DNA of 64,000 nt from Clostridia bacterium (lineage in GTDB: Bacteria > Bacillota > Clostridia > Christensenellales > CAG-917), in assembly GCA_900763875.1 (NCBI GenBank), contig CAAFLX010000038.1, positions 18,429 to 82,428 of the forward strand. Direction: 5' to 3'. Each line of letters opens with the position of its first letter. Within the stretch, counting starts at the first letter, position 1. Of this stretch, positions 915 through 56,687 are shown in pieces. The notes beneath the pieces were generated by a model. It searched no databases, was not told where the DNA came from, and saw only the letters and a program-made list of their open reading frames with translations. A program made the translations under genes and the position numbers.

Positions 915-984
915 GCAAAAGCAACAACAATCAAAATCCATCGGCAACCCCGATGGATTTTTTTTACAACTGCGTTGCTCATTA

Positions 985-1338: not shown

Positions 1339-1375
1339 TACGCTTACGCTCGCAATGACAACGTTAGCACGTTTG

Positions 1376-11984: not shown

Positions 11985-12057
11985 AAGTTTTTGCAAGCTT
12001 ACAAAAGACACGCATTTGCGTGTCTTTCTTTTATTTGCAAAAACTTTTAGTCTTCTA

Positions 12058-12136
12058 CCGCGCAGAAAATCTTTGCTATCAGTTCGAGCACGGACAAAAA
12101 CTCCTGCCACAATTTCGCAAGATTGTCTGCTTGCTG
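12058..12136 (-). repeat. R3 hairpin repeat (isolated copy, inverted)
   Basis: The reverse complement matches caagcagaMaatcttgcgaaattgtggcaggagtttttg...aactgatagcaaagattttctgcg, which also occurs at 29079 and 34669. Confidence 0.85.
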
Positions 12137-12228
12137 CCCCCCTGAATTGGGGTTGCCTGTCAAGGGGCTTTTTCTTGCTCTTTATCCAATCTGTGGCGTT
12201 TAGTTTTTATATAATGATAACATATCGC

Positions 12229-18200: not shown

Positions 18201-18665
18201 ATCTTCAAAAGCCGCCGAACCGAAACTTTTGATTTTGCTTTGGTCATAAGATACTTTTTCCAGTGACGTACAACCCAAAAACGCGCGGCTTTCTATCTTT
18301 GAAACGGACGAGGGCAAATCGATGCTTTTCAAGGATACGCAACCGCGGAACGCGCACCATTTGATTTCGGCAAGTTTGCTGTTTTTGGCAAACTTCACTT
18401 CTTCAAGGTTGGTGCACCCATCGAATGCGCCCTCCGAAATGCTTGTAACGCTTGCAGGTATCGTTATGCTTTTGGAGTTTGGATTTTTTGGCGAAAGCAA
18501 CAAAACCGTTTTGTCTTTTGCATAATAGTTGAAATCGTCCATACCCTCAACCGTTTGCGACTGCACGGGCGGCTCGGTTGTCGACGAGGGTTTGTCGCAC
18601 GCAACAAGCGCAAGCGCAAGGGTCAAAACGGCAAGAAAAACAAGCACGTATGCAAACTTTTTCAT
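15276..18665 (-). CDS. Large BspA-type leucine-rich-repeat (LRR_5) surface lipoprotein, 1129 aa
   Basis: Has the lipobox LALVAC-D and dozens of repeats of the form IPSSVTSIGxxAFxxCxxL. The C-terminal tail is rich in Cys, Asp and His. Confidence 0.85.
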   Translation of the reverse strand: MKKFAYVLVFLAVLTLALALVACDKPSSTTEPPVQSQTVEGMDDFNYYAKDKTVLLLSPKNPNSKSITIPASVTSISEGAFDGCTNLEEVKFAKNSKLAEIKWCAFRGCVSLKSIDLPSSVSKIESRAFLGCTSLEKVSYDQSKIKSFGSAAFEDCKKLKSVVVPSSVSEVKSNDFVGCDSLSEVVLSDGVKRIGNDAFNGKSLERIVLPQTLQSIGDRAFKDNKLSGAISFPKSLTSIGNEAFLGNAFDEITILDGVTSIGKDAFVGGEKAALKTLCVPFAGLSIDNGTLEDVFSAKAVANLSKLTILSGKITKETMQNLATVTLEIGQDVRLESDFISDTAWYQNQPDGIVYLGNIACGFKGDSSRVKKLTFKEGTTRILDEAFSLNAIRPVSPISVIIPSTLTHIGENAFFGTFIASFWVSQNNPAYKSSDTCLLSYDEKSLILGSSFGIIPSGVETIESGAFSIGFNQVGADITLTIPQHVTTIKDNAFLTGIANLYFEEGSKLTTIGNNAFAQYGNTTNEKVLDLSMLESLTYIGDYAFGRFLPTDKIETVKLPKGVRSIGACAFGGGLKNIELSSENTNYTLIDNCLIKGSTVVLGASNSKIPAKYTDDKGNEIDITEIGDYAFSGLDVTGVSLPATIAKIGNSAFQESRGLASVTIPSSVTSIGKDAFSGSTLSEVVFGEDSQLTQIGENAFGKTQLTKITIPSRVATIENGAFAGVNLTEITFQTRKENDCQAYDLQNIGDTAFDKSLSLQRLVAPAGVIAKIKGSVAYVQNVEIVGEDVEAGLLADMKVPDLTIGEGVKKIGDRAFEGLQITSLTIPASVREIGVGAFWHCPIKTLVVAEGNATFIFKSNCLIDKNTHTLVAAFDNGTISKDFVWGGSDGKTKIFDVTSVGKGAFAYTQAESMTIPSNVKTIGEFAFAHSALKQVIIESGVKSIGAKAFYMAENLQTVSVADSVQSIGRSAFAHTKYYADKENENGILYIGKVAYEYRGDKSSVVDLEIKDGTVGIATHAFLRMNNLKKLTLPSSLKHIDKEAFAGCTRLKAIYFKGSDKEWDNVKRELSWDLGVAARKTYTLCKCADKAHDHDGDGVVKGDNETADVCDVFKPYGNEICDACIIKNFDR

Positions 18666-18714
18666 AATATCCTCCGATATGCCTTTTAATAAAGGTATAT
18701 TAACATAATAATAT

Positions 18715-18779
18715 GATGTATCACTTCATTTGTCAAGATGTAATACATCATTGTTGAGATGTGATACTTCATATATAAT
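18715..18779 (+). promoter_or_regulatory. Three operator-like repeats and a TATAAT box upstream of the XRE regulator gene
   Basis: The repeats are gatgtatcacttcat (18715), the palindrome gatgtaatacatc (18737) and gatgtgatacttcat (18758). tataat lies at 18774-18779. Confidence 0.5.
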
Positions 18780-18814
18780 CTAGTTTGCAACCTGCAAATT
18801 GACGGAGGCGTCTT

Positions 18815-19132
18815 ATGAAAGACGTAAATATCGTGCTTGGCGAAAGAACTCGCGCAAGACGGGCGATGCTGAAAATGACAAGGGAAAGTTTGGCGGAAAA
18901 AATCAACGTGAGTCCGCGCTTTCTTGCAGACGTCGAGGGCGGAAAAGTCGGCGTCTCGATTGAAACTCTCAAAAATTTGAGCGTCGCTTTGGGCGTTTCC
19001 TGCGACTATTTGCTTGGAATAAACGAACAAGACAATGCGTCCGAGCTTGTCAAAAACGAATTTTCAAAACTGCCGCCAAAATACGGCATTGCCGTGCTGT
19101 CGCTCATAAACGAGCTTGCAAAACTTGAATAA
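18815..19132 (+). CDS. XRE-family helix-turn-helix transcriptional regulator
   Basis: The HTH_3 segment reads RARRAMLKMTRESLAEKINVSPRFLADVEGG. Confidence 0.85.
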   Translation: MKDVNIVLGERTRARRAMLKMTRESLAEKINVSPRFLADVEGGKVGVSIETLKNLSVALGVSCDYLLGINEQDNASELVKNEFSKLPPKYGIAVLSLINELAKLE

Positions 19133-19143
19133 CAAAAACAAAA

Positions 19144-19165
19144 ACGCACCGAAAGTGCGTTTTTG
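19144..19165. terminator. Bidirectional rho-independent terminator
   Basis: The stem acgcac/gtgcgt is flanked by aaaa and ttttt. Confidence 0.75.
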
Positions 19166-19194
19166 CTTTATCTTGTGAATATTTGGCTTGGTTT

Positions 19195-19680
19195 TCAGTC
19201 TTTGTCGTCGAAGTCATAATCGTCGTCGTCTTCGTCATCGTTCTCGTCGTCATCGGCATAATCGTCGATGTCGCCAAGGTCGTCGTCAAAGTCGTCGGGG
19301 CAATGCTCCTCTTCCTCGTCCTCGAATTCCTCTTCCTCATCCTCTTGAAGTTGGTTGAGAGAAACCTCGTTTTCGTCGTCGGGCACGATAGGCTCGTCGT
19401 CTTCGACAAACTCTTGCCAATCGTCGTCGTCCTCATCGAGTTTGCTTTGAGCGGCGTTTGCTTGCTCCTCTCTGCACGCCGAACATACGTCCTCGCCGGG
19501 TTCAAGATAGTTGACCTTGCAAACGGGACATATTCTTTCTTCTTCCTCTATTTCGTCATCGTCTTCCAAAAGACAGATTTTGCTTGCTTTGCCGAGTTCC
19601 GCTTTGCAAACTTCGCACAATTCCTCTTCGACAGGAATCCAGTTCAGTTCACAGCGCGGGCATTTTTTGTACTTTCCCAT
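19195..19680 (-). CDS. Double zinc-ribbon protein with an extremely acidic (Asp/Glu) C-terminal half
   Basis: Contains CPRC..CEVC and CPVC..CSAC, followed by about 90 residues dominated by D and E. The start is the ATG at 19680, after gaggt. Confidence 0.7.
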   Translation of the reverse strand: MGKYKKCPRCELNWIPVEEELCEVCKAELGKASKICLLEDDDEIEEEERICPVCKVNYLEPGEDVCSACREEQANAAQSKLDEDDDDWQEFVEDDEPIVPDDENEVSLNQLQEDEEEEFEDEEEEHCPDDFDDDLGDIDDYADDDENDDEDDDDYDFDDKD

Positions 19681-21195: not shown

Positions 21196-21272
21196 TGGAT
21201 TGTAGCTCAGTAGGTTAGAGCACCACCCTGATAAGGTGGGGGTCGGTGGTTCGAGTCCACTCAATCCAACCA
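21196..21272 (+). tRNA. tRNA-Ile (anticodon GAU)
   Basis: I folded the cloverleaf by hand. The acceptor stem is tggattg/caatcca, the anticodon loop is ctGATaa, and CCA is encoded. Confidence 0.9.
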
Positions 21273-21336
21273 AAAGCACTCTCAAAAAGAGTGCTTTTTC
21301 TTTGCCTTTTCGTGTACTTTGACGATTGCATCGTCC
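21253..21336 (+). repeat. 84-bp direct repeat, copy 1 (last 20 nt of tRNA-Ile, its terminator, and 36 nt beyond)
   Basis: Identical to 21417-21500 except for one mismatch (cgtgTact versus cgtgCact). Confidence 0.95.
21275..21300 (+). terminator. Rho-independent terminator after the tRNA pair (duplicated at 21439-21464)
   Basis: The stem agcactct/agagtgct is followed by a tttt run. Confidence 0.8.
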
Positions 21337-21416
21337 ACCTGTCGATGGCAGTCGAACCACCTTTCGGTCTGCACGCTGCGCTCTTGCAAATTCCATTTGC
21401 TCGCTTGCTGTTGAGC

Positions 21417-21500
21417 GAGTCCACTCAATCCAACCAAAAGCACTCTCAAAAAGAGTGCTTTTTCTTTGCCTTTTCGTGCACTTTGACGATTGCATCGTCC
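21417..21500 (+). repeat. 84-bp direct repeat, copy 2 (orphan tRNA-Ile 3' end plus terminator)
   Basis: See 21253-21336. No tRNA body precedes this copy. Confidence 0.95.
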
Positions 21501-22063
21501 TCTGCCCAAGCAAAAATCGACGCTAAGGCAACGGCAACACGCATCTTGCGTATTGTCGAGTGCCTTGCTAGATTTTTGCTTCACTAACCGCGCAACCCCT
21601 CTTCACTCTCAAATCAAGACGGACAAAACTCATGCCGCAACTCCGTGCGTGGGCTTGCTTGGTGTTTAGCGTGCAACGCACGCAAGCGGATAAACGAACA
21701 CTCATTCAAGGCGTTCTTATACACGGAATTTGCTTATTCGGAGTGCGAGCCGCAACGGCGGCGAGAAAAGCGAACGCCGAACTTGACGGGTAGTACAAGC
21801 GACTGCGCCATTCTGTTGCGAAGCCGGCGCACAAAGCGCAGTGGCATAACAAGAGGACGATACTTATCTATGTGAGTGCTGAGTGTGTCCCCACGCGGAG
21901 CGGACGCCGTGGGTTCCCTTTTAAGGGGGAACGGCGGTGGGGGAAACACGTGAGGAAGGGGGAAATTGCATTTAAGAGTACACCCCACCCACCCCTTGTA
22001 GAGGAAGAATCTACACTTATTCGGGGCGTACTTATTAACGGAATGTGCTTATTCGGAGTGCGA
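21501..22063 (-). repeat. Inverted composite: R1 copy B (21686-22063) plus the downstream scaffold (21501-21685)
   Basis: The reverse complement aligns with 34281-34875. The R3 and R5 positions hold different sequence. Confidence 0.85.
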
Positions 22064-22099
22064 ATCGCAAAGCGGCGAGTAATTGATGCCGAGCGTTGC

Positions 22100-28366: not shown

Positions 28367-28921
28367 ATGAACAAGAAAATCAGCGCAACAACCGAGAAGA
28401 TTTACAACGCTTTTGCAGAGGTCTTGCTTGAAAAAGAGTACTCCGACGTGCGCATACAGGACGTGTTGGACAAGAGCGGCGTGGCGCGCAGCACTTTCTA
28501 TGCCCACTACAAAACCAAAGAGGATTTGCTCAAATCCATTTGCACCACCATTTTCGGGCACGTCTTCTCCCACTCCCTCGAAGAGGAGCAAAGCCACGAC
28601 TTCTCAAAATCGTCAATCTTTGACTACAAGCACTTCATCACGCACATCTTTTACCACCTGCACGACGAAAAAACCCTCGTCCACGCAATTCTGCTCTCGC
28701 AAAGCAAGGATACGTTTCTCAACTACCTACGCGGCGAATTGAGAGAATTTGCAACCGCTTGCGTGGAAAACAACTTTGTCACGGGCAAAGATCTTCCCAA
28801 ACCGCTGAAAATCAATTCGGTCATCGAAAACTTTGTGCTCCTCGTCGAATATTGGGACTCCACCGCCTTCACCGACACCCCCGAACGCCTGACCGAATAC
28901 TTTTTGATCATGAACGAATAA
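28367..28921 (+). CDS. TetR/AcrR-family transcriptional regulator
   Basis: The N-terminal HTH reads IQDVLDKSGVARSTFYAHYKTKEDLL. Confidence 0.9.
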   Translation: MNKKISATTEKIYNAFAEVLLEKEYSDVRIQDVLDKSGVARSTFYAHYKTKEDLLKSICTTIFGHVFSHSLEEEQSHDFSKSSIFDYKHFITHIFYHLHDEKTLVHAILLSQSKDTFLNYLRGELREFATACVENNFVTGKDLPKPLKINSVIENFVLLVEYWDSTAFTDTPERLTEYFLIMNE

Positions 28922-28965
28922 CCGAAAAACCGCATAAAACATGCAAACGGAGTGACACGGGAAAA

Positions 28966-29078
28966 ATGATATCACTTTGTGATGATATCGTGCATTGCAC
29001 GATGATATCGCACTTGGTGCGATGATATCCAACCGATGTTTGGATTGTGGAATATTCCACTTGCGCCAAAGGCGCACA
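28966..29078 (+). repeat. R4 array of GATATC-separated short hairpins
   Basis: GATATC sites lie at 28968, 28984, 29004 and 29024. The hairpins are atcac/gtgat, atcgtgc/gcacgat, atcgcac/gtgcgat and atccaa/ttggat, followed by two further palindromes. Confidence 0.85.
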
Positions 29079-29158
29079 CACCAAGCAGAAAATCTTGCGA
29101 AATTGTGGCTGGAGTTTTTGCCCCTGCTCAAAACTGATAGCAAAGATTGTCTGCGCGG
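29079..29158 (+). repeat. R3 hairpin repeat
   Basis: The stem gcagaaaatcttgc/gcaaagattgtctgc encloses a conserved loop. Confidence 0.85.
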
Positions 29159-29187
29159 TAGAAATTGTGAGAACAAGTGCGGTCGGT

Positions 29188-29270
29188 GGCAACCGCCACT
29201 GCGTTTTCGTTTCTATTTGGGGGATTCCCACGTCGCTTTGCTCCTCTGAATGACAATCTGGGCGGTTGCC
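29188..29270 (+). repeat. R5 hairpin with a conserved 63-nt loop box
   Basis: The stem ggcaaccgcc/ggcggttgcc encloses tttgggggattcccacgtcgctttgctcctctgaatgaca. Confidence 0.8.
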
Positions 29271-29286
29271 ATAACCGCAACGCCGT

Positions 29287-29657
29287 TTGAGCAAGTGAGA
29301 TGAAGAACAAGAAAGAGCCTGCCAACATAGACAGGAGCGTACTCTGTGTACGTGACTGTTTATGGGGCAGACTCTGACACAGTTATTCGCTCAATATTTT
29401 ATAGAATAGTGTGCCAAATCGATAAAGAGCGAGGAAAAACCCCTTGCGCGGCAACCCTAATGTACATAAGGTACATGAGTTGACGAGCAAAGGGCTTTAA
29501 CAATGCTATTTGCAGAGATATTGTTTGTTGTAATAAAGCCGCTATTGAGATGAAGAACAAGGAAGAGCCTGCCAACATAGACAGGAGCGTACTTGGTGTA
29601 CGTGACTGTTTATGGGGCAGGCTCTGACACAGTTATTCGCTCAATAGCGGCTTTATT
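29287..29657 (+). repeat. R2 long-hairpin array, 3 units
   Basis: The units are approximately 29287-29396, 29406-29515 (variant apex) and 29533-29657. The last 3' arm, atagcggctttatt, contains the hypA stop codon. Confidence 0.9.
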
Positions 29658-29997
29658 CTACGGCGATTTCTTTGATAAGCATCTCGTTTCCACGCACCAA
29701 ATACGTCTTTTCACTGCCGCAATGGGGGCAGATTTTGCCGTATTGGACGGTGGGATATTCTTGCTTGCAAGACTCGCAGTAGGTGACGGCATTGATCGGT
29801 TCGATTTCAAGAATGCAACCGCGCAGAAGGTCGGTGCGGTTGGCATTCCAATTCCAACAATCTATAAGTTGCTCGTTCACAACGGTGGACACTTCGCCGA
29901 TTTGCAAGACAACTTTTTTGATTTTGGTCGCTTTGTTTTCGACGGCGACGTCGCGCACGATGTCCGCGATGTGAAAAACTACGCCCAATTCGTGCAT
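29653..29997 (-). CDS. hypA: Hydrogenase/urease nickel incorporation protein HypA
   Basis: Begins MHELGVV and has the zinc site CESC..CPHCG, at the typical length of 114 aa. Confidence 0.9.
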   Translation of the reverse strand: MHELGVVFHIADIVRDVAVENKATKIKKVVLQIGEVSTVVNEQLIDCWNWNANRTDLLRGCILEIEPINAVTYCESCKQEYPTVQYGKICPHCGSEKTYLVRGNEMLIKEIAVE

Positions 29998-30006: not shown

Positions 30007-32868
30007 TTATTTGTTGGCTTTCTTTGCCGCTTTTGCCGCTTTGACCGCCTCTTTATGTTTCTTTTGAGAGGCCTTTTCCTCGGCGGTTTTTTTGCCGAAC
30101 AAGATTCTCATGCCACGCTTGAATGCGTAAGGAAGAATGACTTTGAACTTGTCTTCACTGCGCACCATAGTGGAGCATTCGGGGTGTTCTCTGTGGAGCT
30201 TGATTGCGTCAAACTCGCACTTGGTGGTGCAGACACCGCAACCGATACACTTGTTTTCGTCCACGACGCTTGCGCCGCAACCGAGGCAACGTCCTGCCTC
30301 AATCTTGACTTGCTCGGCGGTGAGAGTGCCGTGCAAATCTCTGAAGGAGTGCTTGTCGCCATCAAGCTCTTTTGCCTCTTGTCTGCCTGCGGTGTCATAA
30401 CTGTCGATGACAAGGTTGTTTTTGTCAAGCTCGACAAATTGTCTGCGATTGCGACCGATTGTCATGCTTGTGCCCGGTTGCACGAAACGATGCAAAGATA
30501 CCGCCGCCATCTTGCCTGCCTCGATTGCGTCGATTGCAAATTTCGGGCCGCTGTACACGTCGCCGCCGACAAAGATGTCAGGTTCTGCGGTTTGATAGGT
30601 GAGTGAATCCGCAACGGGATAATTGCCGTGATGGAATTCAACCTTTGTGCCTTTGAGCAAGTCACCCCACACGATGGATTGTCCGATTGCAAAGATGACG
30701 TGGCTTGCCTCGACGGTGAGGGTTTCGTTTTCGTCATAAACGGGGCTGAACTTGTTGGTGGCGGGGTCAACAACACGCAAGCACTTCTTGAACACGACTG
30801 CCTTGACCGTGCCGTCGTCGTTTTTGAGGATTTCTTTGGGGCCCCAACCGTTGTTGATTGAGATTCCGTCTTCAAGTGTTTCCTCGATTTCGTTTTTGCT
30901 TGCAGGCATGGTATCTCTCGATTCGAGGCAATACATACCGACCTCTTCACTGCCGAAACGAACGGCGGTGCGAGCGCAGTCCACGGCAACGTTTCCGCCG
31001 CCGATGACAACGGTTTTGCCATCGAGTTTTCTGTCGTGATTCTCGGTTGCATCGTGCAAGAACGAAACAGCCATATCCGTGCCGATTGCGTCCTCGCCGG
31101 GGACTCCGGGGAGCCTGCCGCCTTGGCAGCCGATTGCAATGTAGAATGCTTGATAGCCTTGCTTTCTGAGGTCTGCAATGGTGACATCCTTGCCCACATC
31201 TACACCCGTCTTAAACTCAACGCCAAGCTCGCGCAAAACGTCGATTTCCGCATCGATAACGTCTTTTTCGAGCTTGTAGGACGGAATGCCGTAAGTGAGC
31301 ATACCACCGAGTTTCTCGTTCTTTTCAAACACGGTGGGAAGATAGCCCTTGGTTGCAAGATAGTAGGCGCAAGAAAGACCTGCAGGGCCTGCGCCGATGA
31401 TTGCAATCTTTTGTCCCCAATGCTTTTCGACGTTGGACGGAATGACCACTTCGGGAACGTATCTTGTTTCGGCGTGCAAATCTTGCTCTGCGATGAACTT
31501 CTTGATGTCGTCGATTGCAACCGCCTCGTCAATCGTGCCTCTGGTGCAAGCCGCCTCGCAACGCTTGTTGCAAACGCGACCGCAGATTGCAGGGAACGGA
31601 TTGTCCTTTTTGATGAGCGCAAGAGCCTCTCTGTATTTGCCCTCTTTTGCCTTGCGAATGTAGCCTTGGACGGCGATGTGCGCAGGGCATGCCGCCTTGC
31701 ACGGGGACGTGCCCGTTTCATAGCAGTTGATGCGGTTGTTGTCCCTGTAATCTTCGTCCCACTTGTCAGGGCCCCAAGAGAGATTGTCGGGAAGTTCGTG
31801 TTTCGGATATTTGATTTCGCCTTGCTTTGTGCAAAGTTTTTGTCCGAGCTTGACCGCGCCTGCAGGGCAGAATTCCACGCACTTGCCGCAAGCGACGCAC
31901 TTGTCTTTTTCAACGCGCGCGACGTATGCGCTTCTCGACATGTTGGGCGTGTTGAAAAGTTGCGACGTGCGAAGCGCGTTGCAGACGTTGAGGTTGCAGT
32001 TGCAGATTGCAAAAATCTTGTTTTCGCCGTCGATGTTGGTGATTTGGTGAACGAAACCGTTCTTTTCGGCGCGTTGGAGAATCTCCATTGCCTCTTCATA
32101 AGTGACGTCGCGACCCTTGCCCGTTTCGCGGCAGAAGTCCGCCATATCGCCGATGCCGATGCACCACTCTTCACAGCTGTCGCCGCAGCCCTCGCCGAGC
32201 TTCGATCTGCCGTAACGGCAAGAGCAAATGCCAACGCCGAGGTGTCCCTCGTATTTTTTGAGCCAGTAGGAAATATGCTCGATGTCCATCGTGCCGTTTT
32301 CCATCTCGATGGCTTTTTCAACGGGAATGACGTGCATACCGATGCCTGCGCCTCCCGGAGGAACCATGGGCGTGACCATTGTCAAAGGAAGATACGTCAT
32401 ACGCTCGAAGAACATCGCAAGTTCGGGGTGTTCGTCAAGCTGCTTTTTGATCATATTGGTGAACTCGGCAGAGCCGGGCACGAACATCGGCAAAACGTAG
32501 CGACGCTCTTTCTTTGCGCCGGGGATAGGCCCGTCATGATCGTAGTTGTTGCCGTAGTCGTACTCGATTACACCGACATAGCTCATCTTGTCGAGAAGTT
32601 CTTGCAACTTTTCGGCACTCAATTCGGGGTTCATCTTTTTGAGATCCTCGAACGTGTAGTGTTTGCGCACCTTCATTTTGAGAGCAACGTCCGCCATCTC
32701 GTCGGTGACAACGCAACGAAGCCCCCAGTACTCGGGGTCGTCTGCCGTCACACCTTTAATCTTGTGGTCGACGCAGTCCGTGATTTTTCTTGCTAATTTG
32801 AGGATTTTTTCACTCGGATTCTTCTCGCCCATATACTTGGGTTTGAACGCCTTGCTCATCTCAGCCAT
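30007..32868 (-). CDS. Multidomain Fe-S flavoprotein: Cys-rich N-terminal domain, 4Fe-4S ferredoxin, GltD/NfnB-like FAD/NAD(P) oxidoreductase, and a C-terminal 2x[4Fe-4S]
   Basis: Contains [43 protein letters not shown] and CLGCG..CIGCGVCTTKC. The start is the ATG at 32868, after ggagaaaac. Confidence 0.85.
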   Translation of the reverse strand: MAEMSKAFKPKYMGEKNPSEKILKLARKITDCVDHKIKGVTADDPEYWGLRCVVTDEMADVALKMKVRKHYTFEDLKKMNPELSAEKLQELLDKMSYVGVIEYDYGNNYDHDGPIPGAKKERRYVLPMFVPGSAEFTNMIKKQLDEHPELAMFFERMTYLPLTMVTPMVPPGGAGIGMHVIPVEKAIEMENGTMDIEHISYWLKKYEGHLGVGICSCRYGRSKLGEGCGDSCEEWCIGIGDMADFCRETGKGRDVTYEEAMEILQRAEKNGFVHQITNIDGENKIFAICNCNLNVCNALRTSQLFNTPNMSRSAYVARVEKDKCVACGKCVEFCPAGAVKLGQKLCTKQGEIKYPKHELPDNLSWGPDKWDEDYRDNNRINCYETGTSPCKAACPAHIAVQGYIRKAKEGKYREALALIKKDNPFPAICGRVCNKRCEAACTRGTIDEAVAIDDIKKFIAEQDLHAETRYVPEVVIPSNVEKHWGQKIAIIGAGPAGLSCAYYLATKGYLPTVFEKNEKLGGMLTYGIPSYKLEKDVIDAEIDVLRELGVEFKTGVDVGKDVTIADLRKQGYQAFYIAIGCQGGRLPGVPGEDAIGTDMAVSFLHDATENHDRKLDGKTVVIGGGNVAVDCARTAVRFGSEEVGMYCLESRDTMPASKNEIEETLEDGISINNGWGPKEILKNDDGTVKAVVFKKCLRVVDPATNKFSPVYDENETLTVEASHVIFAIGQSIVWGDLLKGTKVEFHHGNYPVADSLTYQTAEPDIFVGGDVYSGPKFAIDAIEAGKMAAVSLHRFVQPGTSMTIGRNRRQFVELDKNNLVIDSYDTAGRQEAKELDGDKHSFRDLHGTLTAEQVKIEAGRCLGCGASVVDENKCIGCGVCTTKCEFDAIKLHREHPECSTMVRSEDKFKVILPYAFKRGMRILFGKKTAEEKASQKKHKEAVKAAKAAKKANK

Positions 32869-33538
32869 TGTCGTTTTCTCCTTTGAAAATTTGTATTGTT
32901 TTGTATATTCTATCTTCAAGCACGTCAAGCCCCTCCCCCGTCTTTGCGCTCACGTAGAAGATTTGCGCGTCGGGATTGAGCCTTGAAATATGCTCTTCAA
33001 ATCTTGATTTGTCAAAGTCGAACGCTTCGAGCGTGTCTATCTTTGTGACGACGATAAGGTCGCACTTTTCAAACATCAAAGGATATTTGAGAGGCTTGTC
33101 GTCCCCCTCGGGTACGGACAAAAGCATCATATTGAGGTGCGCGCCCGTGTCGAACTCGGCAGGACATACAAGGTTGCCTATGTTTTCAAGCACGATGAGG
33201 TCGCAATCGTCAAACGCCGCTTGGTTGAGTGCCTCGCTCACCATATCCGCGTCGATATGGCAAAGTCCGCCGTTGTGAATTTGCACGCTCTCTATGCCTG
33301 CGCCCTCCGCTATGCGGCGCGCGTCAACGTCAGTTTCGATGTCAACGTCCATCGCAACCACTTTGAGCTTGGTTTTGACGCTCTTCAAAAGCGCGCTCAA
33401 AAGCGTGGTCTTGCCGCTGCCCGGCGAGGACATCACGTTGAGAAGGAACGTGCCTTTGCTTTTCAAAGTCGCTCTCAATGCGTCCGCTGTCTTTTCGTTG
33501 TTTGAAAATATACTCTCTTTGACGGAAATAACTCTCAT
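32861..33538 (-). CDS. hypB: HypB-family nickel metallochaperone GTPase, paralogue 2
   Basis: Contains SSPGSGKTT, GGLCHIDA, ENIGNLVCPAEFD, EGDDKPLKYP and VTKID. Confidence 0.9.
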   Translation of the reverse strand: MRVISVKESIFSNNEKTADALRATLKSKGTFLLNVMSSPGSGKTTLLSALLKSVKTKLKVVAMDVDIETDVDARRIAEGAGIESVQIHNGGLCHIDADMVSEALNQAAFDDCDLIVLENIGNLVCPAEFDTGAHLNMMLLSVPEGDDKPLKYPLMFEKCDLIVVTKIDTLEAFDFDKSRFEEHISRLNPDAQIFYVSAKTGEGLDVLEDRIYKTIQIFKGENDNG

Positions 33539-34209
33539 TTCAAGCCCCCTCTCCACTCGTTGTAATTGTCCAGCAGATAGTCCGAAAGCGCGCCTATACC
33601 CTCGCCCGTGCGCGCAGATACCTCAAATACCTTTGCGCTCGGATTGACTCTTGCGATATATTCCTTGCATCTGTCAACGTCAAAATCAAAATACTTTGCC
33701 GTGTCGCACTTTGTGAGCACCACCAAGTCCGCAACAGAAAACATAAGCGAATATTTGAGCGGTTTGTCGTCACCCTCCGGAAGTGCCAACAACACCATTT
33801 TCAAGTGCGCACCCGTGTCGAACTCGGCAGGACAAACGAGGTTGCCGATGTTTTCCAAAAATACCAGCTCCGCACCCGTTGCAAACTCCTTGAAACCTTG
33901 CCTCGACATATCCGCGTCCAAATGGCACATACCGCCCGTGTGAAGTTGGATTGCCTCCGCACCGGCCTCACGCACCGTGTATGCGTCCACGTCGCCGTCG
34001 ATATCCGCCTCCATAACGCCAACCTTGACCTTGTCTTTCAAAGTCTTGGTGAGCGCGCATAGCAGCGTCGTCTTGCCGCTGCCCGGCGCAGACATCACGT
34101 TGACGTAGTAAACCCCTGCCTCGTCAAGCTCGGCACGGAGTTTGTTTGCATCGGCATCATTGTTTTGAATGATGCTCTCTTTCAGTTCAATTGTTCTAAT
34201 AGAATCCAT
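33535..34209 (-). CDS. hypB: HypB-family nickel metallochaperone GTPase, paralogue 1
   Basis: Contains SAPGSGKTT, GGMCHLDA, ENIGNLVCPAEFD, EGDDKPLKYS and LTKCD. Confidence 0.9.
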   Translation of the reverse strand: MDSIRTIELKESIIQNNDADANKLRAELDEAGVYYVNVMSAPGSGKTTLLCALTKTLKDKVKVGVMEADIDGDVDAYTVREAGAEAIQLHTGGMCHLDADMSRQGFKEFATGAELVFLENIGNLVCPAEFDTGAHLKMVLLALPEGDDKPLKYSLMFSVADLVVLTKCDTAKYFDFDVDRCKEYIARVNPSAKVFEVSARTGEGIGALSDYLLDNYNEWRGGLK

Positions 34210-34280
34210 ACTAGCCTCTCTTTGGCTTTTATTGTAACACTTGTAAAATATATTTTCAATATATTTGAAAAATTTAAGTT

Positions 34281-34647
34281 TTGAAGTTGCACATACCGTG
34301 CATAATCACGCTACGAATGAGTGTAACTTCTTCCTCTACAAGGAGTTGGGCGTGAACCCTTAATTCAATTTCCCCCTTCCTCACGTGTTTCCCCCACCGC
34401 CGTTCCCCCTTAAAAGGGAACCCACGGCGTCCGCTCCGCGTGGGGCAACACTCAGCACTCGCATAGATTGCTATCGTCCTCTTATTATGCCACTGCGCTT
34501 TGTGCGCCGGCTTCGCAACAGAATGGCGCAGTCGCTTGTACCGTCTGTCAAGCTCGGCGTTCGCTTTTCTCGCCGCCTTGCGGCTCGCACCCTGAATAAG
34601 CACATTCCGTTAATAAGAACGCCCAGAATGAGTGTTCGCTTATCCGC
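34281..34647 (+). repeat. R1 structured repeat, copy C
   Basis: A full element including both flanking direct repeats, gcacataccgtgcataat... and gcacattccgttaataag... Confidence 0.9.
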
Positions 34648-34668
34648 TTGCGTGCAAAGCACGCTAAA

Positions 34669-34748
34669 CACCAAGCAGAAAATCTTGCGAAATTGTGGCA
34701 GGAGTTTTTGCACCTACCTAAAACTGATAGCAAAGATTTTCTGCGCGG
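34669..34748 (+). repeat. R3 hairpin repeat
   Basis: The stem is gcagaaaatcttgc/gcaaagattttctgc. Confidence 0.85.
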
Positions 34749-34778
34749 TTAGCAGACTGAAAACCTAGCAAGGCTCTT

Positions 34779-34860
34779 GGCAATCGCCACTATGCTTACG
34801 CTTCTATTTAGGGGATTCCCACGTCGCTTTGCTCCTCTGAATGACATTAGAGGCGATTGC
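34779..34860 (+). repeat. R5 hairpin with the conserved loop box
   Basis: The stem ggcaatcgcc/ggcgattgc covaries with the copy at 29188. The same loop box is present: tttaggggattcccacgtcgctttgctcctctgaatgaca. Confidence 0.8.
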
Positions 34861-34875
34861 AATTGCCTTAGCGAC

Positions 34876-35251
34876 GATTTTCAGTCGGATGAAGAACACG
34901 GAAAAGCCTGCCAACATAGACAGGAGCGTACTTGTCGTACGTGACTGTTTATGGGGCAGGCTTTGACAAAGTTATTCGCCAAATCATCTTTAATCTTGTA
35001 AAAACGCACTATTTGGATGAAGAACAAGAAAACGCCCTTTTGCGAACTCGCCTAGCGTACTTGAAGTACGTGACGGGTGAGCAAAAGGGCGTTGCCGCAG
35101 TTATTCGCCAAATCATTTATAACTTTGTAAAAACGCACTATTTGGATGAAGAACACGGAAAAGCCTGCCAACATAGACAGGAGCGTACTTGTCGTACGTG
35201 ACTGTTTATGGGGCAGGCTTTGACAAAGTTATTCGCCAAATAGTGCGTTTT
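34876..35251 (+). repeat. R2 long-hairpin array, 3 units
   Basis: The units are approximately 34876-34985, 35000-35115 and 35128-35251. The last 3' arm, atagtgcgttttt-a, contains the stop codon of the ABC/FtsX gene. Confidence 0.9.
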
Positions 35252-38200
35252 TAGTCTACGCGGAGAGCATCCACAACGTTCTTCCTCGACGCCATAATCG
35301 CAGGAATTATGCCTGAGATTATCGTCAGTGCCAAGCTGAGGCAGACGAGAATGAAGGCGTGGAGCGGATGGAAGTGCAACAGCGAGCCGATGCCTGCAAC
35401 TGCTTTGATGATGACGGACACGATTGGACAGAGAATGTAGGTGACGAGAATACCTATGAGCCCGCTTGTGAGTCCGATGAGCGAGGTTTCGGCGATAAAG
35501 ACGTTGCGTATATCCTGCTTTCGCGCGCCGATTGCGCGGAGTATGCCGATTTCACGAGTACGCTCGACAACGGAGTTGGAGGTGATGACGCCGATCATAA
35601 CGGTGGATACGACAAGAGATATTGCCGCAACCGCGATGAGCATTGCAGATACGAGGTCGAGCGTGCTGCGCATATTGACAAGGAACATTTCGGACACGTC
35701 AAAGTAGCCAATCTCGCCCTTGCCGTCGTGTTGCCATGCCTCGATATACTTGCCCGACTTAACCTTTTGATTGCTGTCGTTGGGGAACACGGTAACGTAA
35801 TACGGGCTTCTATCCGCTCCGATTGCTCTCATAAAGTAGGTGTATTGGAGCGCGGGAACGCCGCTCATTGCATAAAGTGCCGTCGAGCCTTGTTGCGAAA
35901 AGTCAACTTCGTTGTTCAAGCGCACGTTCTTGAAAACCGTCTTTTTGCCGGTGGTTGTGTTTTTGTCAAGTTCGAGTTGGCGTTTGACAAGAGTGCTCTC
36001 GCTCGCGCTCTTGAGGGTGCTTTCGGCAAGCGCGCTCGTATAGCATATGGACGAGGTGACGTAGGTGTGTTCGGTTTGCTTTTTCGCTCTTATAACGCCG
36101 ACAACTTTGATTTCATCGTTGGAATCCTCATACATCTTTTTGAGCAACGCTTGAGATTCGGTTGAATCGTCATAGCTCCACATCAACGTGCTGCTTGCTT
36201 TTTCGCTGAACGGGTCAAGAAAGCTGCTGCTACCGCCGTCTTCTTCCTCCGTTTTGCTTTTTCCGATGCCGACGTTGTTGAGATACTTGCCGCTTGCCTC
36301 GTCATAGACGTAATAGTTGTCGTTTCCCACAAGTTTGAAGGTTTGACCGAGGAAATATTCGTACGGCACGTTGTCGGTGTCCATTTTTTTGGGTTTGCCC
36401 TCGTCGTCAAAAACTATATTGCCGTTTGCGTCCTTTTCGTAAACGTCGATGCCAAATGCGTTCAGCACGTCTTTGGATATGGTGTTGTCGGAGTTTACGC
36501 AAAGCAAAACTTCGTTTTTGTTTTTGGGATAACGACTGCCCTCGCCCACAAAATCATAGGAGCGCATCGTGACTTCTTCGCTTGCGACAAGTTCTTGCCA
36601 ATACTTGGCTTGAAGTCCGTTTTCGCCGAGTACGGTGGTTGCAATCGCCGTGGTTGTCAAGGGCTTCGGTTGTTGCGATACGTCCTTGTAGGTGACGTTG
36701 CCGTCGGCGTCGTACGTCTTGCGCACAAGGTTGTACCTCAAGCCGTAGGAGATGCCGAGAGCAGTGTAATAATCCTTGGGCATCGCTTTCATATAATCGG
36801 CAAATTCCTCGGTCAACTCGTTCTTTTGAACGCCGTTCATAAAGGAAGTGACCATTGACAAAGTCATCTTTGCAATCATACTGTTTGCGCTGCCTGCGCT
36901 GCCCGACACTTTGATGTCGTCCGTATCGGGAGCGGGCTTTGTCGAGCCTTGACCGGACGGTCTTTCCATCATGCTGGACATCAAGTCCATAATCGCGCTG
37001 CTTGACACGTTGTATTGATAAACGCCAAGAGGCACGCCTGCGAGCAAGTCGTTTTCCATTCTTGCAAGGTAGAGATTGAATCCGTTGTAAATGGACAGCA
37101 CGAGCGCAAGACCTATTATGCCGATTGCGCCTGCAAAAGACGTGAGCAACGTGCGGCGTTTTTTGGACACGAGGTTTTTAAGGCTCAATCCAAACGCCAT
37201 ACCCGGACTCATAGACGTGGGCTTGAACGCCCTGTCCCTCTTCTTTTTCTTTTTGGAAAGGCTGTTGAGGCCGAGCTTGTCAAAGAGCGCGTCCGTCTCC
37301 TCTCCGACGTTTTTCATTGCGTTTTTACGCTTGCGATTCGACACCTTTTTCTTTTTGGGCGCGTCCTCGCAATGTTGTTCGGTTTGAGGGTTTATGCTGT
37401 CATTTTGAGCGGTTGGAGTGCTTGTTTGGACATTTTGTGCATCGTCAACGTCGTCTGTCGTAACGATGCCGAACACTGATTTTTCGTCGTCGCTTGCGAT
37501 TGAAATTTCCTCGTCTTGCACCGTGGACACGTCGTCCGTTTGCGCCGTTTCGCCGCTCTCGACGTCCTCTTTTTTCTCGATTTCGGGATAGAAAGGATTG
37601 GTATCTTCGATGAGCTGTCCGTCCTTAAAACGGCAAATACGCGTGGCGTATTGATAGGCAAGTTCGGCGTTGTGCGTGACCATAATGACGAGGCGATTTT
37701 TGGAAATCTCTTGCAATATATCCATAACCTGCACGCTAAGCTCGCTGTCCAACGCGCCCGTCGGCTCGTCCGCCAAAATGATTTTGGGGTCGTTGACGAT
37801 TGCACGCGCAATCGCTACGCGCTGCATTTGACCGCCCGAAAGTTGGTTGGGCTTTTTGTCAATCTCCTCGTGCATATTGACTTTGTGAAGAGCGGCAACC
37901 GCCTTTGCTCTTCTCGCCTTTTTCTTTTCGCCCACAAGGCTCAAGGCAAGCTCGACGTTTTCAAGTACGGTGAGGTGAGGAATGAGGTTGTAGCTTTGAA
38001 AAACAAAACCGATGGTTGCGTTGCGGTAGGCGTCCCAGTGCTCGTCGTCGAAATCGGCAGTGGAAACTCCGCCGATGACGAGATCGCCCGACGTATATCT
38101 GTCAAGACCGCCTATGATGTTGAGCATGGTCGTTTTGCCGCAACCGCTCGGGCCTAGAATCGCCACAAACTCGCTTTCGCGGAAGTTGAGTGACACGCTC

Positions 38201-39157: not shown

Positions 39158-39331
39158 ATGAAAATCAAAAAAGCAAGAAAAACTCCCCAATCTCACAGCA
39201 ATTTGTCAACGCACGAGAATATGCGCTCGCTCTACGACCCCAACGGCAGCTACACCGGCACACCCGAAGAGAACGGCTACCCCAAAACGCCTGACGGCGA
39301 CCTCCCCGTCCAAGACGCGGACGACTTGTGA
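39158..39331 (+). CDS. Possible small protein (57 aa), not in the ORF track
   Basis: The ATG at 39158 is preceded by gaaggagactgt. The translation is MKIKKARKTPQSHSNLSTHENMRSLYDPNGSYTGTPEENGYPKTPDGDLPVQDADDL. Confidence 0.45.
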   Translation: MKIKKARKTPQSHSNLSTHENMRSLYDPNGSYTGTPEENGYPKTPDGDLPVQDADDL

Positions 39332-39351
39332 TTTTGGCTTTGATAAATGTT

Positions 39352-39731
39352 TGGGGGGGGGTGAACTCTAAATTGCAACTTCCCCCTTCCTCACGTGTTT
39401 TGTTCGTACTCTACAAGAGTTGGGCGGGGTGTACTCTAAATTGCAACTTCCCCTTTCCTCACGTGTTTTCCCCATCACCGTTCCCCCTTAAAAGGGAACC
39501 CACGGTGACCGCGTAGCGGGGGACAACACTCAGCACTCACATAGATAAGTATCGTCCCCTTGTTATGCCACTGCGCTTTGTGCGCCGGCTTCGCAACAGA
39601 ATGGCGCAGTCGCTTGTACTATCCGTCAAGTTCGGCGTTCGCTTTTCTCGCCGCCTTGCGGCTCGTGTTCCGTCTTTGAAGTTACACATACCGTGTATAA
39701 GAACGCCCTGAATAATTGTTCGTTTATCCAC
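39352..39731 (+). repeat. R1 structured repeat, copy D (with an internal 68-bp tandem duplication)
   Basis: ctctaaattgcaacttccccYttcctcacgtgtttt occurs at 39366 and 39434. The core is otherwise as in copies A and E. Confidence 0.9.
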
Positions 39732-39732
39732 A

Positions 39733-39812
39733 ATCCAAACAAAGTTTGGATATCATCGTGCAACGCACGATATCATCACGAAGTGATATCACCGCAGCAG
39801 GCGATATCATTT
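39733..39812 (-). repeat. R4 array of GATATC-separated short hairpins (inverted relative to 28966)
   Basis: GATATC sites lie at 39749, 39769, 39785 and 39803. The linker is ATC rather than GAT. The array abuts the M28 peptidase stop codon at 39811. Confidence 0.85.
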
Positions 39813-41130
39813 ATTTTGTATGGCTTTGGTCGATTTTGTCGATTACTCGAAGGACGATATCCAGTCCAAGCCCAACCGTGTCGGCGGAAAAACGCTCGGG
39901 CACGTCGCGGAACGTGTGATAATAATCGCTCATAACGGGGTTTTGGGCGGCAAAAGTGATTGACTTTACGCCTGCTTTTTGGAAAGGCGTTGAATCGCAA
40001 CCGCCGACGGGATTGGCGATGTCGCCGGGATTTTTGATGCCTGCCTCGCGCATTGCCTCTTTGAACATACGCTCCAAGTCTTTGTCAAAATGAGGGCAAA
40101 GCCAACTGTCGCCGTGTATGACCTCGAAGTGGTCGGGGTCGGCGATTGAGTCGATGTTGATGTGATAGGCATTGTCGAGCATACCGTCGTTTTTATGCTT
40201 GCGCGTAAAGGCAATCGAGCCGCGCAGTCCCGACTCCTCCGCACCGACGTTGCAATCGACGATACGGCAGTTTTTGGGCATTCTATCGGGGTTTTCTTTG
40301 AAATATTTGACAACTTGATAGGCGATTGAAACGCCCGTTGCGTTGTCCATTGCGCCGGGAGAGGCGATTGCCTCGGTCTTTTCGTTGTACATCGTGAGCA
40401 AGAACGCGCACACTAGGGTGAGCGGCGACGAATACAACACGATTTGCGCAATCACGGAATACGCTTTTGCAACGCCGACAATGGTTGAGTATTCCATTGC
40501 GCTTGTTCTATAATAAAGCACCATTGAAAGAATGAGCAAAATCAAACTGAATATGCTCACAAGCGCGACCGCAAGCGCGCCTACTGCGATGCGCAACACC
40601 ACTCCTACAAAGCCGAGTTTGTGTTGTGACGCGCTCAGTTTGAGCGTCCAGCTGGTGTCGGTGTGCCCCGAAAGAAAAACGGTGTAGTCGTATTGTCCGT
40701 CTTCGGGGAGCAATTCGGCATACGTATTGTGGGACACTTTGTGCTTAAAGCACCAATCGAAACAGGTGTTGTACTTGAACACGCTCACAACAAGCCAAAT
40801 CCACACAAAAACCATATACATTGTGGTGACAAAATGCAACGCAAGCCCCGCAAAAGACGAAATGCTTGCAAGCATGGTTGCAATAATCGTAAGCACACAG
40901 CCGATTATGCCTGCCCACCCTGCATACGGCAAACCGCCGATTGACGAGTGTGGCGCAAAAACAAAACTCTCCGTGACGGGTTTCAGCCCGATTTCTTTGA
41001 GCTTGTCCGACATATAATCGTGATATTTTTTCTCGTTTTGAGAACCGGGAAGGCGAGGGCCAATCTCGCGCGCGGCATATTCAACCATTTCGTAGGCGTC
41101 GTCGCCGTACTTTTTGAGTTCTTCTCTCAT
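39811..41130 (-). CDS. M28-family metallopeptidase with an internal multi-TM insertion
   Basis: Contains GAMDNATGV and NVGAEESGLRGS, with about 5 hydrophobic helices between the N-terminal and catalytic parts. The start is the ATG at 41130. Confidence 0.8.
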   Translation of the reverse strand: MREELKKYGDDAYEMVEYAAREIGPRLPGSQNEKKYHDYMSDKLKEIGLKPVTESFVFAPHSSIGGLPYAGWAGIIGCVLTIIATMLASISSFAGLALHFVTTMYMVFVWIWLVVSVFKYNTCFDWCFKHKVSHNTYAELLPEDGQYDYTVFLSGHTDTSWTLKLSASQHKLGFVGVVLRIAVGALAVALVSIFSLILLILSMVLYYRTSAMEYSTIVGVAKAYSVIAQIVLYSSPLTLVCAFLLTMYNEKTEAIASPGAMDNATGVSIAYQVVKYFKENPDRMPKNCRIVDCNVGAEESGLRGSIAFTRKHKNDGMLDNAYHINIDSIADPDHFEVIHGDSWLCPHFDKDLERMFKEAMREAGIKNPGDIANPVGGCDSTPFQKAGVKSITFAAQNPVMSDYYHTFRDVPERFSADTVGLGLDIVLRVIDKIDQSHTK

Positions 41131-51261: not shown

Positions 51262-51384
51262 AAAACCGCGATATTGAGATGAAGAACAAGGAAAAACCGC
51301 TCGCACAGATAGGAGCGTACTTATCGTACGTGACTATTTGTGTGAGCGGTTTTGACACAGTTATTCGCTCAATAGCGCGGTTTT
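51262..51384 (+). repeat. R2 long hairpin, single unit
   Basis: The outer stem is aaaaccgcgatattgag/ctcaatagcgcggtttt. The 3' end contains the stop codon of the phosphoesterase gene. Confidence 0.9.
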
Positions 51385-56003: not shown

Positions 56004-56119
56004 ATTCCCTCTAATATCGATTTTGCGCCTACAATTATATCACGAAACCCACCCTTTCGCAATACGCGCGCAATATTATGTTATATTAAATATACATATA
56101 ATATGGTATTTTTATTGGC

Positions 56120-56560
56120 TTGAAGTTGCACATTGCGTGTATAAGTGCGCTTTGAATAGTGAAGATTCTTCCTCTACAAGGGGTTGGCGTTGTGCACCCT
56201 TAATTAGATGCGCCCCCTCTTTCCCTATCGGGCTTTGTTCGTCCTCTACAAGAGTTGGACGGCGAGAACTCTAAATGTAATTTTCCCCTTTCCTCACGTG
56301 TTTTCCCCATCACCGTTCCCCCTCTGCGTGCCTTGAGGGAACCCACGGTGACCGCGTAGCGGGGGACAACACTCAGCACTCACATAGATAAGTATCGTCC
56401 CCTTGTTATGCCACTGCGCTTTGTGCGCCGGCTTCGCAACAGAATGGCGCAGTCGCTTGTACTATTCGTCAAGTTCGGCGTTCGCTTTCTCGCCGCCTTG
56501 CGGCTCGTGTTCCGTCTTTGAAGTTGCACATACCATTTATAAATGCACTTTGAAAGTGTT
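56120..56560 (+). repeat. R1 structured repeat, copy E
   Basis: A full element with a partially duplicated 5' module. It has a 1-nt deletion (cgctttctcgcc) relative to the other copies. Confidence 0.9.
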
Positions 56561-56687
56561 ATAAAGCCCGCAAAATCGATGCATAACGCGAAAGCACCCT
56601 TTGATTGGCAAACCCAGCGTACAATGACGTACGTGGTTTGACAAGCAAAGGGTGCTGACAAAGTTAGGCGCGATTTTGCGGCTTTAT
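56561..56687 (+). repeat. R2 long hairpin, divergent single unit
   Basis: The outer stem is ataaagcccgcaaaatcg/cgattttgcggctttat and the inner stem is gcaccctttg/caaagggtgc. The 3' arm overlaps the SDR gene stop codon. Confidence 0.85.

Follow-up and report, generated by a model that had tools for sequence, protein, structure and literature searches.

In a 64,000-nucleotide window of contig CAAFLX010000038.1 from a Clostridia bacterium, the 1041 bases between the start of hypB (34209, minus strand) and the stop codon of a MacB-like ABC/FtsX gene (35251-35253) consist almost wholly of repeat modules, and we think it probable that this spacer is a strain-variable pile-up of lineage-specific interspersed repeats and not one gene or a fixed RNA. 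Searches with nhmmer, using profiles of six module families derived from the copies in the window, assign 930 of the 1041 bases to modules that all share one orientation, and self-BLAST of the window leaves no gap between 34281 and 35260; the sole long stretch of the spacer lacking repeat matches is the 70 bases at 34210-34279. The original prediction for this region had described nearly every base as belonging to a repeat module, with the modules in a single orientation and in an order that recurs elsewhere, and this anatomy is borne out, the profile coordinates lying close to those first proposed. The recurrence takes the form of long colinear self-alignments, in which 34289-34784 matches 22048-21552 in inverted orientation (83% over 500 nt, E 8e-146), 34643-35260 matches 29056-29662 (76.5% over 626 nt, E 2e-116) and 34303-34648 matches 983-1339 (84%), and the break-points of these alignments coincide with module borders. 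The pattern is far beyond chance, and since the spacer DNA is identical in independent assemblies, it is not an assembly artefact; MAGs (metagenome-assembled genomes) with this locus include GCA_019973095.1.

Read from the hypB side, with all modules on the minus strand, the unique hypB upstream region (34210-34279) is followed by a ~55-nt hairpin, F (34280-34334, E 2e-15 with the nhmmer F profile), by the ~260-270-nt core of module R1, here of subtype I (34328-34590, its strand favoured by context; R1 profile match 34309-34652), and by a second F hairpin on the ABC side of R1, which is 5' of the core in gene sense (34591-34645, E 9e-15). Next come R3 with its small hairpin (34648-34755, of which nhmmer matches 34667-34755, E 9e-27) and the ~85-110-nt R5 (34771-34879, E 3e-35), and then three R2 units, namely R2a, the third from the ABC stop (34882-34995, E 3e-32), the diverged R2b (35001-35124, nhmmer) and R2c, a complete ~125-nt hairpin (35130-35256, nhmmer and folding). 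Tandem Repeats Finder missed the R2 array because its units are too diverged. Over the whole window the modules make up 6.4% of the sequence, with five R1 sites and five R2 sites.

The R2 unit is a ~125-nt interrupted hairpin with a stem of ~55 bp, and the early description of these units as giant hairpins with a U-tract stands: the array folds with -176 kcal/mol (z = -13.3 against shuffles), and TTTTT follows its last unit on the plus strand. Every R2 array in the window begins at the TAA of the preceding co-directional gene, the five genes concerned being unrelated (ypeB-like, hypA, ABC, metallophosphoesterase and SDR), and R2 occupies orthologous stop-codon sites, in constant orientation, in the related sequences L012, L018, L024, L025 and L026. 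Read in the sense of the upstream gene, the first R2 units follow the plan TAA-AAACGCnCTATTTGG-CGAATAAC-...-TCACGTAC-N5-GTACGCT-...-TTGTTCTTCAT-CCAAATAGnGCGTTTTT. In the ABC-hypB spacer the stop TAA (35253-35251) is the first triplet of the R2c base, and in gene sense R2c, with the termini TAAAAACGCACTATTTGG ... CCAAATAGTGCGTTTTTA, runs from this codon through a 17-bp perfect basal stem, set within the ~55-bp interrupted stem, to TTTTT; it is flanked by an A-tract on one side and a U-tract on the other, like a bidirectional terminator, and it folds at -56.9 kcal/mol in the sense of the gene and at -69.9 kcal/mol antisense. The full basal stem with its A- and U-tracts is found only in the gene-adjacent unit, to which further units are connected via a ~30-nt linker. 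R2a, without the full basal stem, is 100% identical to R2c over 98 nt, and R2b retains the architecture of the other units with a different mid-stem sequence in which pairing is kept, and is 98% identical to the lone R2 behind the ABC gene in L018. Across 20 aligned units compensatory double changes occur at 17 of 25 consensus pairs, and, in contrast to the variable terminal 15 bp, conserved sequence is found at the apex (TCACGTAC-N5-GTACGCT) and in the sub-basal motifs (GCGAATAAC, TTGTTCTTCATC). Because the interrupted stem of ~55 bp starts with the stop TAA and finishes at a U-tract, the folding model suggests that R2 is most likely a long-stem bidirectional terminator and 3'-end protector of the upstream mRNA; with both an A-tract and a U-tract present, it would also block convergent transcription.

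Some further observations concern R2 and its surroundings. The rpsR gene, at the end of the rpsF-ssb-rpsR operon, has a hairpin with 40-nt arms (11975-12056) that also begins at its TAA stop and shows no sequence similarity to R2; a long hairpin anchored at the stop codon may be a general habit of this genome. In the flanking contig sequence (L027 6560-6920, ~2.3-2.6 kb past the window end) a strong promoter match (TTGACG, 17 nt, TAATAT) stands ahead of ~110 nt of non-coding sequence, which includes a C-rich run, and of two R2 hairpins beyond it, an arrangement that may represent a small RNA gene with R2 as its terminator. An 89-aa open reading frame (ORF) on the plus strand (34932-35201) lies entirely within the R2 array; the gene call made for it in a public assembly (at L008 9009-9278) is almost certainly spurious. 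An integron attC assignment for R2 and F was rejected, the units abutting without an ORF, the R2 boxes GAATAAC...GTTCTTC sitting inside a further 15-bp stem, and no integrase being present.

The original prediction had treated the spacer as one ordered composite, and here it does not hold, as close relatives carry other module sets at the same spacer and modules also occur singly. Compared with the 1041 nt of the window (R2 x3, R5, R3, F, R1 subtype I, F), the equivalent spacer in L012/L013 (HypB 98% identical) has 810 nt and carries one R2, resembling a fusion of R2a and R2c, R5 and R3 copies 100% identical to those of the window, F, an R1 of subtype II (77%) and an R1 fragment replacing the outer F. 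That of L018 (HypB 88%) has 1020 nt with an R2b-type R2, a partial R2 and tandem R1 copies in the arrangement F-R1-F-R1-F, with no R3 or R5; L024 (HypB 76%) has three R2 units and then R1 fragments in opposite orientation; and L021 (HypB 79%), in which the upstream gene is another one, has a 203-nt spacer with no modules. The R2 count at this spacer is consequently three in the window and L024, one in L012/L013 and one or two in L018. The hypA-tetR spacer similarly holds 732 nt of modules in the window versus 71 nt with a plain terminator hairpin in L018, and the M28-peptidase spacer varies among three near-identical strains, the differences being an extra F-X-F block, different F-joined modules and a ~85-nt replacement inside R1. 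Within the window R2 stands alone at 51263 and R3 at 12046, and R1 occurs without R2 at 39402 and 21681. The gene-sense order R2-R5-R3-R1 does recur, but the differing sets in relatives indicate that the modules are the units and that the recurrent order is frequent and not obligate.

The modules (F plus R1, R3, R5, R2, and R4, which is described below) are self-contained, stem-closed units residing in gene 3' regions, mostly in sense orientation. On this reading they would be spread, reshuffled and homogenised by recombination or gene conversion at the shared F and R2 sequences, which would yield recurrent orders without fixing them. R2 units in particular may be gained and lost via unequal recombination between near-identical units, given the identity of R2a and R2c and the fused single unit of the relatives. 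The main rival to this account is active transposition by a distant transposase. The modules could be non-autonomous mobile elements, akin to miniature inverted-repeat transposable elements (MITEs) or palindrome-associated transposable elements (PATEs), moved by an enzyme with its gene elsewhere in the genome, a transposase or recombinase that recognises either the F hairpins, as in IS200/IS605-like ends, or the R2 inverted repeats, and that targets stop-codon or terminator regions. The high copy number (five sites each for R1 and R2 over 64 kb), the variation of presence, absence and orientation between relatives, and the constant placement of R2 relative to the TAA are all compatible with such movement, and two features are those of the element classes themselves, namely the F-core-F(-core-F) arrays with hairpins in direct orientation, as in PATEs, and the 17-bp terminal inverted repeats of R2c (AAAAACGCACTATTTGG / CCAAATAGTGCGTTTTT), as in MITEs. 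However, alignment of the first R2 units at 12 sites shows no consistent target-site duplication, no clean pair of filled and empty sites was seen for a single module, and variable R2 ends around conserved inner motifs are the reverse of the usual MITE pattern. Module orientation follows the local gene on both strands, which argues against IS200/IS605 lagging-strand targeting, and the loci read have no TnpA/TnpB partner and no fixed flanking tetranucleotide. The ORFs of the window and its flank yielded no transposase, integrase, TnpB or reverse transcriptase (Pfam scans or precomputed matches, and the L027 gene list), no Rfam match to HEARO or IS605-orfB appears even at E<=10, and blastn against plasmids and phages gave no real match. 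We therefore regard transposition as unlikely, if a serious contender.

R1 comprises the ~260-270-nt core, which the F hairpin precedes in gene sense; a further F or a truncated R1 usually comes after the core, giving arrays of the form F-core-F (34280-34645 and 21688-22054) or F-core-F-core-F (at about L018 5238-5909). The lower stem of F differs between copies while its pairing is kept (GAAGTT/AACTTC at 34280-34334, ATAAGC/GCTTAT at 34591-34645). The five window copies of R1 are 83-94% identical, at least two subtypes can be distinguished, and a homologue at 75-80% is present in a metagenome-assembled genome (MAG) of another Clostridia bacterium (L001); in this distant copy only the gene-sense 5' F is present, which makes F plus core the basic unit. 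Predicted R1 pairs are 94% paired, versus 42-49% when the partners are slid, and the stem closing a conserved 16-nt loop (AUUCUGUUGCGAAGCC in gene sense) has three or four compensatory pairs in three sequence versions. Some copies contain a ~85-nt structured replacement in mid-R1, with the hairpin GCGATTG...CAATCGC (L013 820-910, L018 410-640, L025 5150-5240), that looks like an optional expansion domain. Indels of 1, 2, 8 and 10 nt between copies break every ORF, so R1 is not protein-coding; a protein, small peptide or type I toxin was rejected on this ground, the 127-aa plus-strand ORF (34385-34768) and the short minus-strand ORFs all being interrupted. As far as pairing models can tell, R1 is a non-coding structured element with some covariation. 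Its flanks are other modules and not a common short target.

Invariant 20- and 23-mers of R1 were found in public DNA in only one other species (the Clostridia MAG of L001) and in a few gut contigs, and in no viral contigs; a 23-mer match in a Paenibacillus MAG and a 20-mer match in Ga0315281 were set aside as chance because they have no wider similarity. Among named relatives, R1 is carried only by a MAG of Hadza gut origin labelled 'uncultured Clostridia bacterium', and the R1 core string is absent from the supplements of Fremin & Bhatt 2021.

The smaller modules are likewise closed by stems. R3 (~90 nt) combines a small GCGTGC-AAA-GCACGC hairpin, which had earlier been labelled a linker, with a ~80-nt hairpin closed by GCAGAAAATCTT.../...AAGATTTTCTGC, and R5 (~110 nt) is closed by GGCAATCGCC/GGCGATTGC, the closing inverted repeats of the two measuring 9-15 bp. 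Further R3 copies lie at 29077-29165, 12046-12138 and 21575-21666, the last two being entered as minus-strand in our list of R3 copies and as plus-strand in our list of sites (12046-12138 and 21575-22094), and a further R5 lies at 29181-29289. R4, which is present in sister composites and not in the ABC-hypB spacer, is the Gut-1 RNA motif (Rfam RF01706); in the window it consists of three or four hairpins, each flanked by UGAUAU. The copy at 8740-8818 (plus strand) scores 56.9 bits and passes the Rfam gathering score of 50 bits, and two copies below gathering (28964-29033, 46.7 bits, E 6e-8; 39745-39812, 41.8 bits, E 7e-7) are clearly homologous as judged by the R4 sequence profile. No Rfam 15 family matches R1, R2, R3, R5 or F at gathering in the window, and permissive scans of 34150-35350, 39300-39830, 28900-29700 and L018 4950-6010 returned, besides Gut-1, only chance-level miRNA and other matches. 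A group II intron remnant, a T-box, an omega-RNA and a type III antitoxin array were also set aside, their defining features being missing or no Rfam match being found. Gut-1 has been an orphan motif known only from human gut metagenomes, reported without genomic context or function (Weinberg et al. 2010, PMC2864571), whereas here it is one module of a mosaic and always lies behind a co-directional gene.

These structured modules could also be understood in another way, in which R1 (F and a ~270-nt core that can include ~85-nt expansion domains, in two or more subtypes) would be a new class of large structured non-coding RNA that forms, together with Gut-1, R2, R3 and R5, 3'-untranslated-region 'RNA cassettes' shuffled between genes by a dedicated mechanism. 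Site-specific exchange at F hairpins or transcript-linked copying could provide such a mechanism. We hold this rather unlikely as a whole, and prefer to see the spacer as a pile-up of interspersed repeats in which R1, if expressed, is probably carried on the gene strand as part of a 3' untranslated region or a read-through RNA.

Sequence context suggests that the gene (minus) strand is likely the functional sense of the modules, opposite to that first proposed. It is favoured because R2 abuts stop codons and because Gut-1 lies in sense to the preceding genes, the Rfam strand agreeing with the preceding gene at three of three sites. In convergent spacers (28960-29658; L027 6689-7419) the module sets face each other, as in the flanking contig, where R2 x2 face an R1-R3-R5 set running from the phosphoglucomutase gene. 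The minority of genes on the plus strand (SpoU, rpsR, tetR and tRNAs) carry plus-sense modules, so that orientation tracks transcription and not replication, and in other genomes R1 is found 3' of co-directional whiA (L003/L004) and at a feoB locus (L001).

According to the original prediction, the composite, if transcribed as a unit, would instead be a highly structured ~1-kb RNA ending at a giant hairpin with a U-tract. In such a model R1 would be a plus-strand RNA gene whose transcript passes through R3 and R5 and ends at the R2 hairpins, and its C-rich single-stranded stretches could then pair with Shine-Dalgarno sequences in the manner of the C-rich small RNAs of Firmicutes. The plus strand of R1 is indeed C-rich, R1 and R2 are co-oriented and adjacent at 983-1628, 34280-35256 and 56119-56688, R2 is the more stable on the plus strand, and the U-tract behind the last R2 is where such a transcript would end. 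Yet the promoter scan finds no sigma-70-like promoter on the plus strand ahead of R1. Where R1 occurs without R2 (39402, 21681) a plus-sense transcript would enter a gene antisense, R2 occurs without R1 at 51263 and behind hypA, and the R1-to-R2 order is broken in relatives; as the Gut-1 strand and the stop-codon abutment also indicate the other strand, we find a plus-strand RNA gene decidedly improbable.

Several points weigh against our reading of the spacer and its sense strand. The transcribed strand is deduced from genomic context only, and tests based on structure fail to tell the two strands apart: in 14 of 14 copies the minus strand of R1 is the more stable one, yet the z-scores are equal (-2.0 and -2.3), so that base composition explains the difference in stability, while the counts and ratios of G-U and A-C are alike on both strands and R2 folds somewhat better antisense. 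Co-directionality has exceptions in the R1 fragments at L024 9426-9786 and in a block of L013 beside a divergent gene, and R1 is oppositely oriented at the same spacer in L018 and L024. With regard to R2, one pair outside the window follows a promoter-bearing non-coding stretch and not an ORF, and the R2 hairpins escaped the consensus terminator scan, as its pattern is restricted to short, simple stems with a loop of 3-8 nt. The compensatory changes in R2 can also arise by DNA-level conversion from arm to arm without selection on an RNA, and the means by which the modules spread is deduced and not observed.

For the hyp genes, it had been argued that the composite must contain their promoter and so could influence expression of the nickel genes. 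The best sigma-70-type match of the region (TTGAAA, 17 nt, TG-n-TACAAT, 34259-34231, minus strand; -35 TTGAAA at 34259-34254), with an AGAGAGG ribosome-binding site downstream, falls inside the 70 non-repeat bases at 34210-34279. This block is nearly identical in L012 and L018, and the promoter core (TTGAAA or TTGTAA ... GTGnTATAAT) is kept in L021, L024 and L025, with other modules or none; the predicted promoter thus lies in unique sequence and is conserved regardless of the modules, which does not support a direct effect through the promoter. The composite may still act indirectly, through read-through of ABC transcription or through insulation from it, with the three strong hairpins perhaps shielding the hypB promoter from ABC read-through; the hyp operon would use its own promoter in the 70 unique bases, and the composite would at most insulate it. 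That R1 acts as a cis-acting leader, riboswitch- or attenuator-like, for the hyp operon and other genes downstream of it is very improbable, since, although a structured gene-sense R1 lies directly upstream of hypB, of a 555-aa gene at 56003 and of a gene at 38988, these genes are unrelated, two of the five window copies (983-1342 and 21681-22094) have convergent neighbours and no downstream gene, the conserved promoter between R1 and hypB places R1 outside the primary hypB transcript, and hypB orthologues have other R1 subtypes or none.

An inverted repeat, TTCAA-ATATA-TTGAA, spans the hypB -35 element (34240-34270) and is conserved in L012 and L018 and not in L021 and L024; this TTCAA-N5-TTGAA sequence may be an operator. 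The operon begins with two tandem hypB paralogues (32861-34209), both of which pass the HypB equivalog TIGR00073 (230 and 234 bits), and is completed by a 953-973-aa GltD-type FeS/flavin oxidoreductase and hypA; the window contains no hydrogenase or urease structural gene.

Among described repeats, the closest analogues are BOX, RUP, SPRITE, BIME/REP, ERIC and the bcr repeats (Delihas 2011, PMC3184786), and by analogy the best reading of the modules is as interspersed mosaic intergenic repeats of the BOX/SPRITE/BIME type. The BOX elements of Streptococcus pneumoniae (boxA-boxB(n)-boxC) are likewise modular intergenic repeats of a Firmicute, with ordered sub-units, a variable number of internal units and predicted stable RNA structures, and are transcribed with neighbouring genes; the window modules show the same combination of ordered sub-units and variable R2 copy number. 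SPRITE, a terminator-like repeat of ~105 bp, is biased to gene 3' ends, as R2 is. There is no sequence similarity to either, however, the present modules are larger (~125 nt for R2, ~330 nt for R1 including F), R2 begins exactly at the stop codon, and BOX is thought to be moved by an insertion-sequence (IS) transposase, for which no partner is seen here. BIME/REP elements of enterobacteria and pseudomonads are also mosaics of palindromic units and linkers in a set order, extragenic and behind genes, where they affect mRNA 3'-end stability and termination, but REP units are GC-rich, 20-40 nt long, arranged as inverted pairs and linked to RAYT transposases, whereas the present units measure 55-330 nt and stand in direct orientation, and no RAYT is seen.

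The NIMEs of Neisseria are strain-variable, recombination-prone arrays in which the repeat units are flanked by dRS3, an inverted repeat of 20 bp that phage integrases use. They share with the F-core-F-X-F arrays the separation of repeat units by one short conserved repeat, with the difference that F is a 55-nt hairpin in direct orientation and a putative recombination site. ERIC and bcr1-bcr18 of the Bacillus cereus group are, like the present modules, hairpin-forming intergenic repeats of ~100-400 bp that are often co-transcribed at gene 3' ends, and some are suspected structured RNAs; their sequences and hosts are other, and some have target-site duplications, which are not seen here. HEARO/IscB and TnpB omega-RNA (IS200/IS605) resemble R1 as multi-copy structured RNAs of ~300 nt, sometimes without an ORF and with direct end hairpins, but IscB, TnpB and TnpA are absent nearby, no hypervariable guide-like segment is evident, and orientation follows genes. 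The MITE, IS200/IS605-PATE, integron attC, riboswitch and small RNA gene classes each lack at least one defining feature.

The remaining module sites of the window show the same elements in other combinations. A second composite (983-1628, minus strand) consists of R1 (990-1342) and two R2 units (1379-1628) and ends at the TAA of the ypeB-like gene (1624), and an inverted one (21575-22094, plus strand) behind tRNA-Ala/tRNA-Ile comprises R3 (21575-21666), F, R1 (21681-22026), F and the start of another R1, which closes it at 22094. Behind tetR, a sense Gut-1 (R4) copy (28960-29054, plus strand; cmscan and nhmmer) faces head-on the R3, R5 and three R2 units behind hypA (29077-29658, minus strand), of which the first R2 begins at the hypA TAA (29653-29655). 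On the minus strand, the M28 peptidase gene is followed at 39354-39813 by Gut-1 (39745-39812), F plus R1 (39402-39734) and an R1 fragment (39354-39400), the metallophosphoesterase gene by a single R2 (51263-51388) at its TAA (51383), and the SDR gene at 56119-56688 by a diverged R2 (56564-56688) at its TAA and then F, R1 (56237-56559), an R1 fragment and F. On the plus strand, a solitary R3 (12046-12138) follows rpsR and its stop-codon hairpin, and two tandem Gut-1 units (8740-8923; cmscan, with an R4 profile match at 8835-8923) follow the SpoU methylase gene. These tandem units (8740-8818 and 8835-8923) precede a gene for an ECF-type sigma factor, and the second overlaps the start of its listed ORF (8906).

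Near the M28 site, a 57-aa ORF on the plus strand (39158-39331) matches no family and keeps its position in L012, L013, L018 and L024 (57-59 aa), and in L018 and L024 R1 lies downstream of the ORF of this type in the same direction. Upstream of the inverted composite, 21252-21336 is repeated at 21416-21500, 164 nt downstream, with 99% identity; the repeated segment contains the last 21 nt of tRNA-Ile, a terminator hairpin and 40 bases, and resembles an integration or excision scar at a tRNA 3' end, with no element between the copies. A 1129-aa BspA-type leucine-rich-repeat protein is encoded at 15276-18665 (minus strand), and the 530-nt spacer behind its gene (18665-19195) has a 21-nt tandem repeat at 18715-18772. 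The window also encodes Spo0A, SpoIIR, YpeB, a SleB-like hydrolase, rpsF-ssb-rpsR and several tRNA synthetases, and exact look-ups of the ypeB-like protein and of the gene at 12278 returned no record. The next 9 kb of the contig carry mnmG, mnmE, jag, yidC and rnpA, which places the region in the origin-proximal chromosome of a spore-forming Clostridia bacterium.

The modules therefore constitute a dense repeat system, not described before, in a spore-forming and uncultured lineage of gut Clostridia, represented in Hadza, Nepali and other human gut samples, and only Gut-1 among them is already catalogued. They have practical consequences for genomes of this lineage, as they break short-read assemblies, several Logan contigs terminating within R1 or R2, and generate spurious ORFs such as that in the R2 array. 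For the hyp genes the message is negative, their predicted promoter being separate from the repeats and conserved. Two parts of the system merit follow-up, the R2 hairpin anchored at the stop codon and the unclassified structured R1. The orphan Gut-1 motif gains a genomic setting as one of several structured modules behind co-directional genes, and if the modules were indeed RNA cassettes, this would be the first genomic context for a motif that has been an orphan since 2010.

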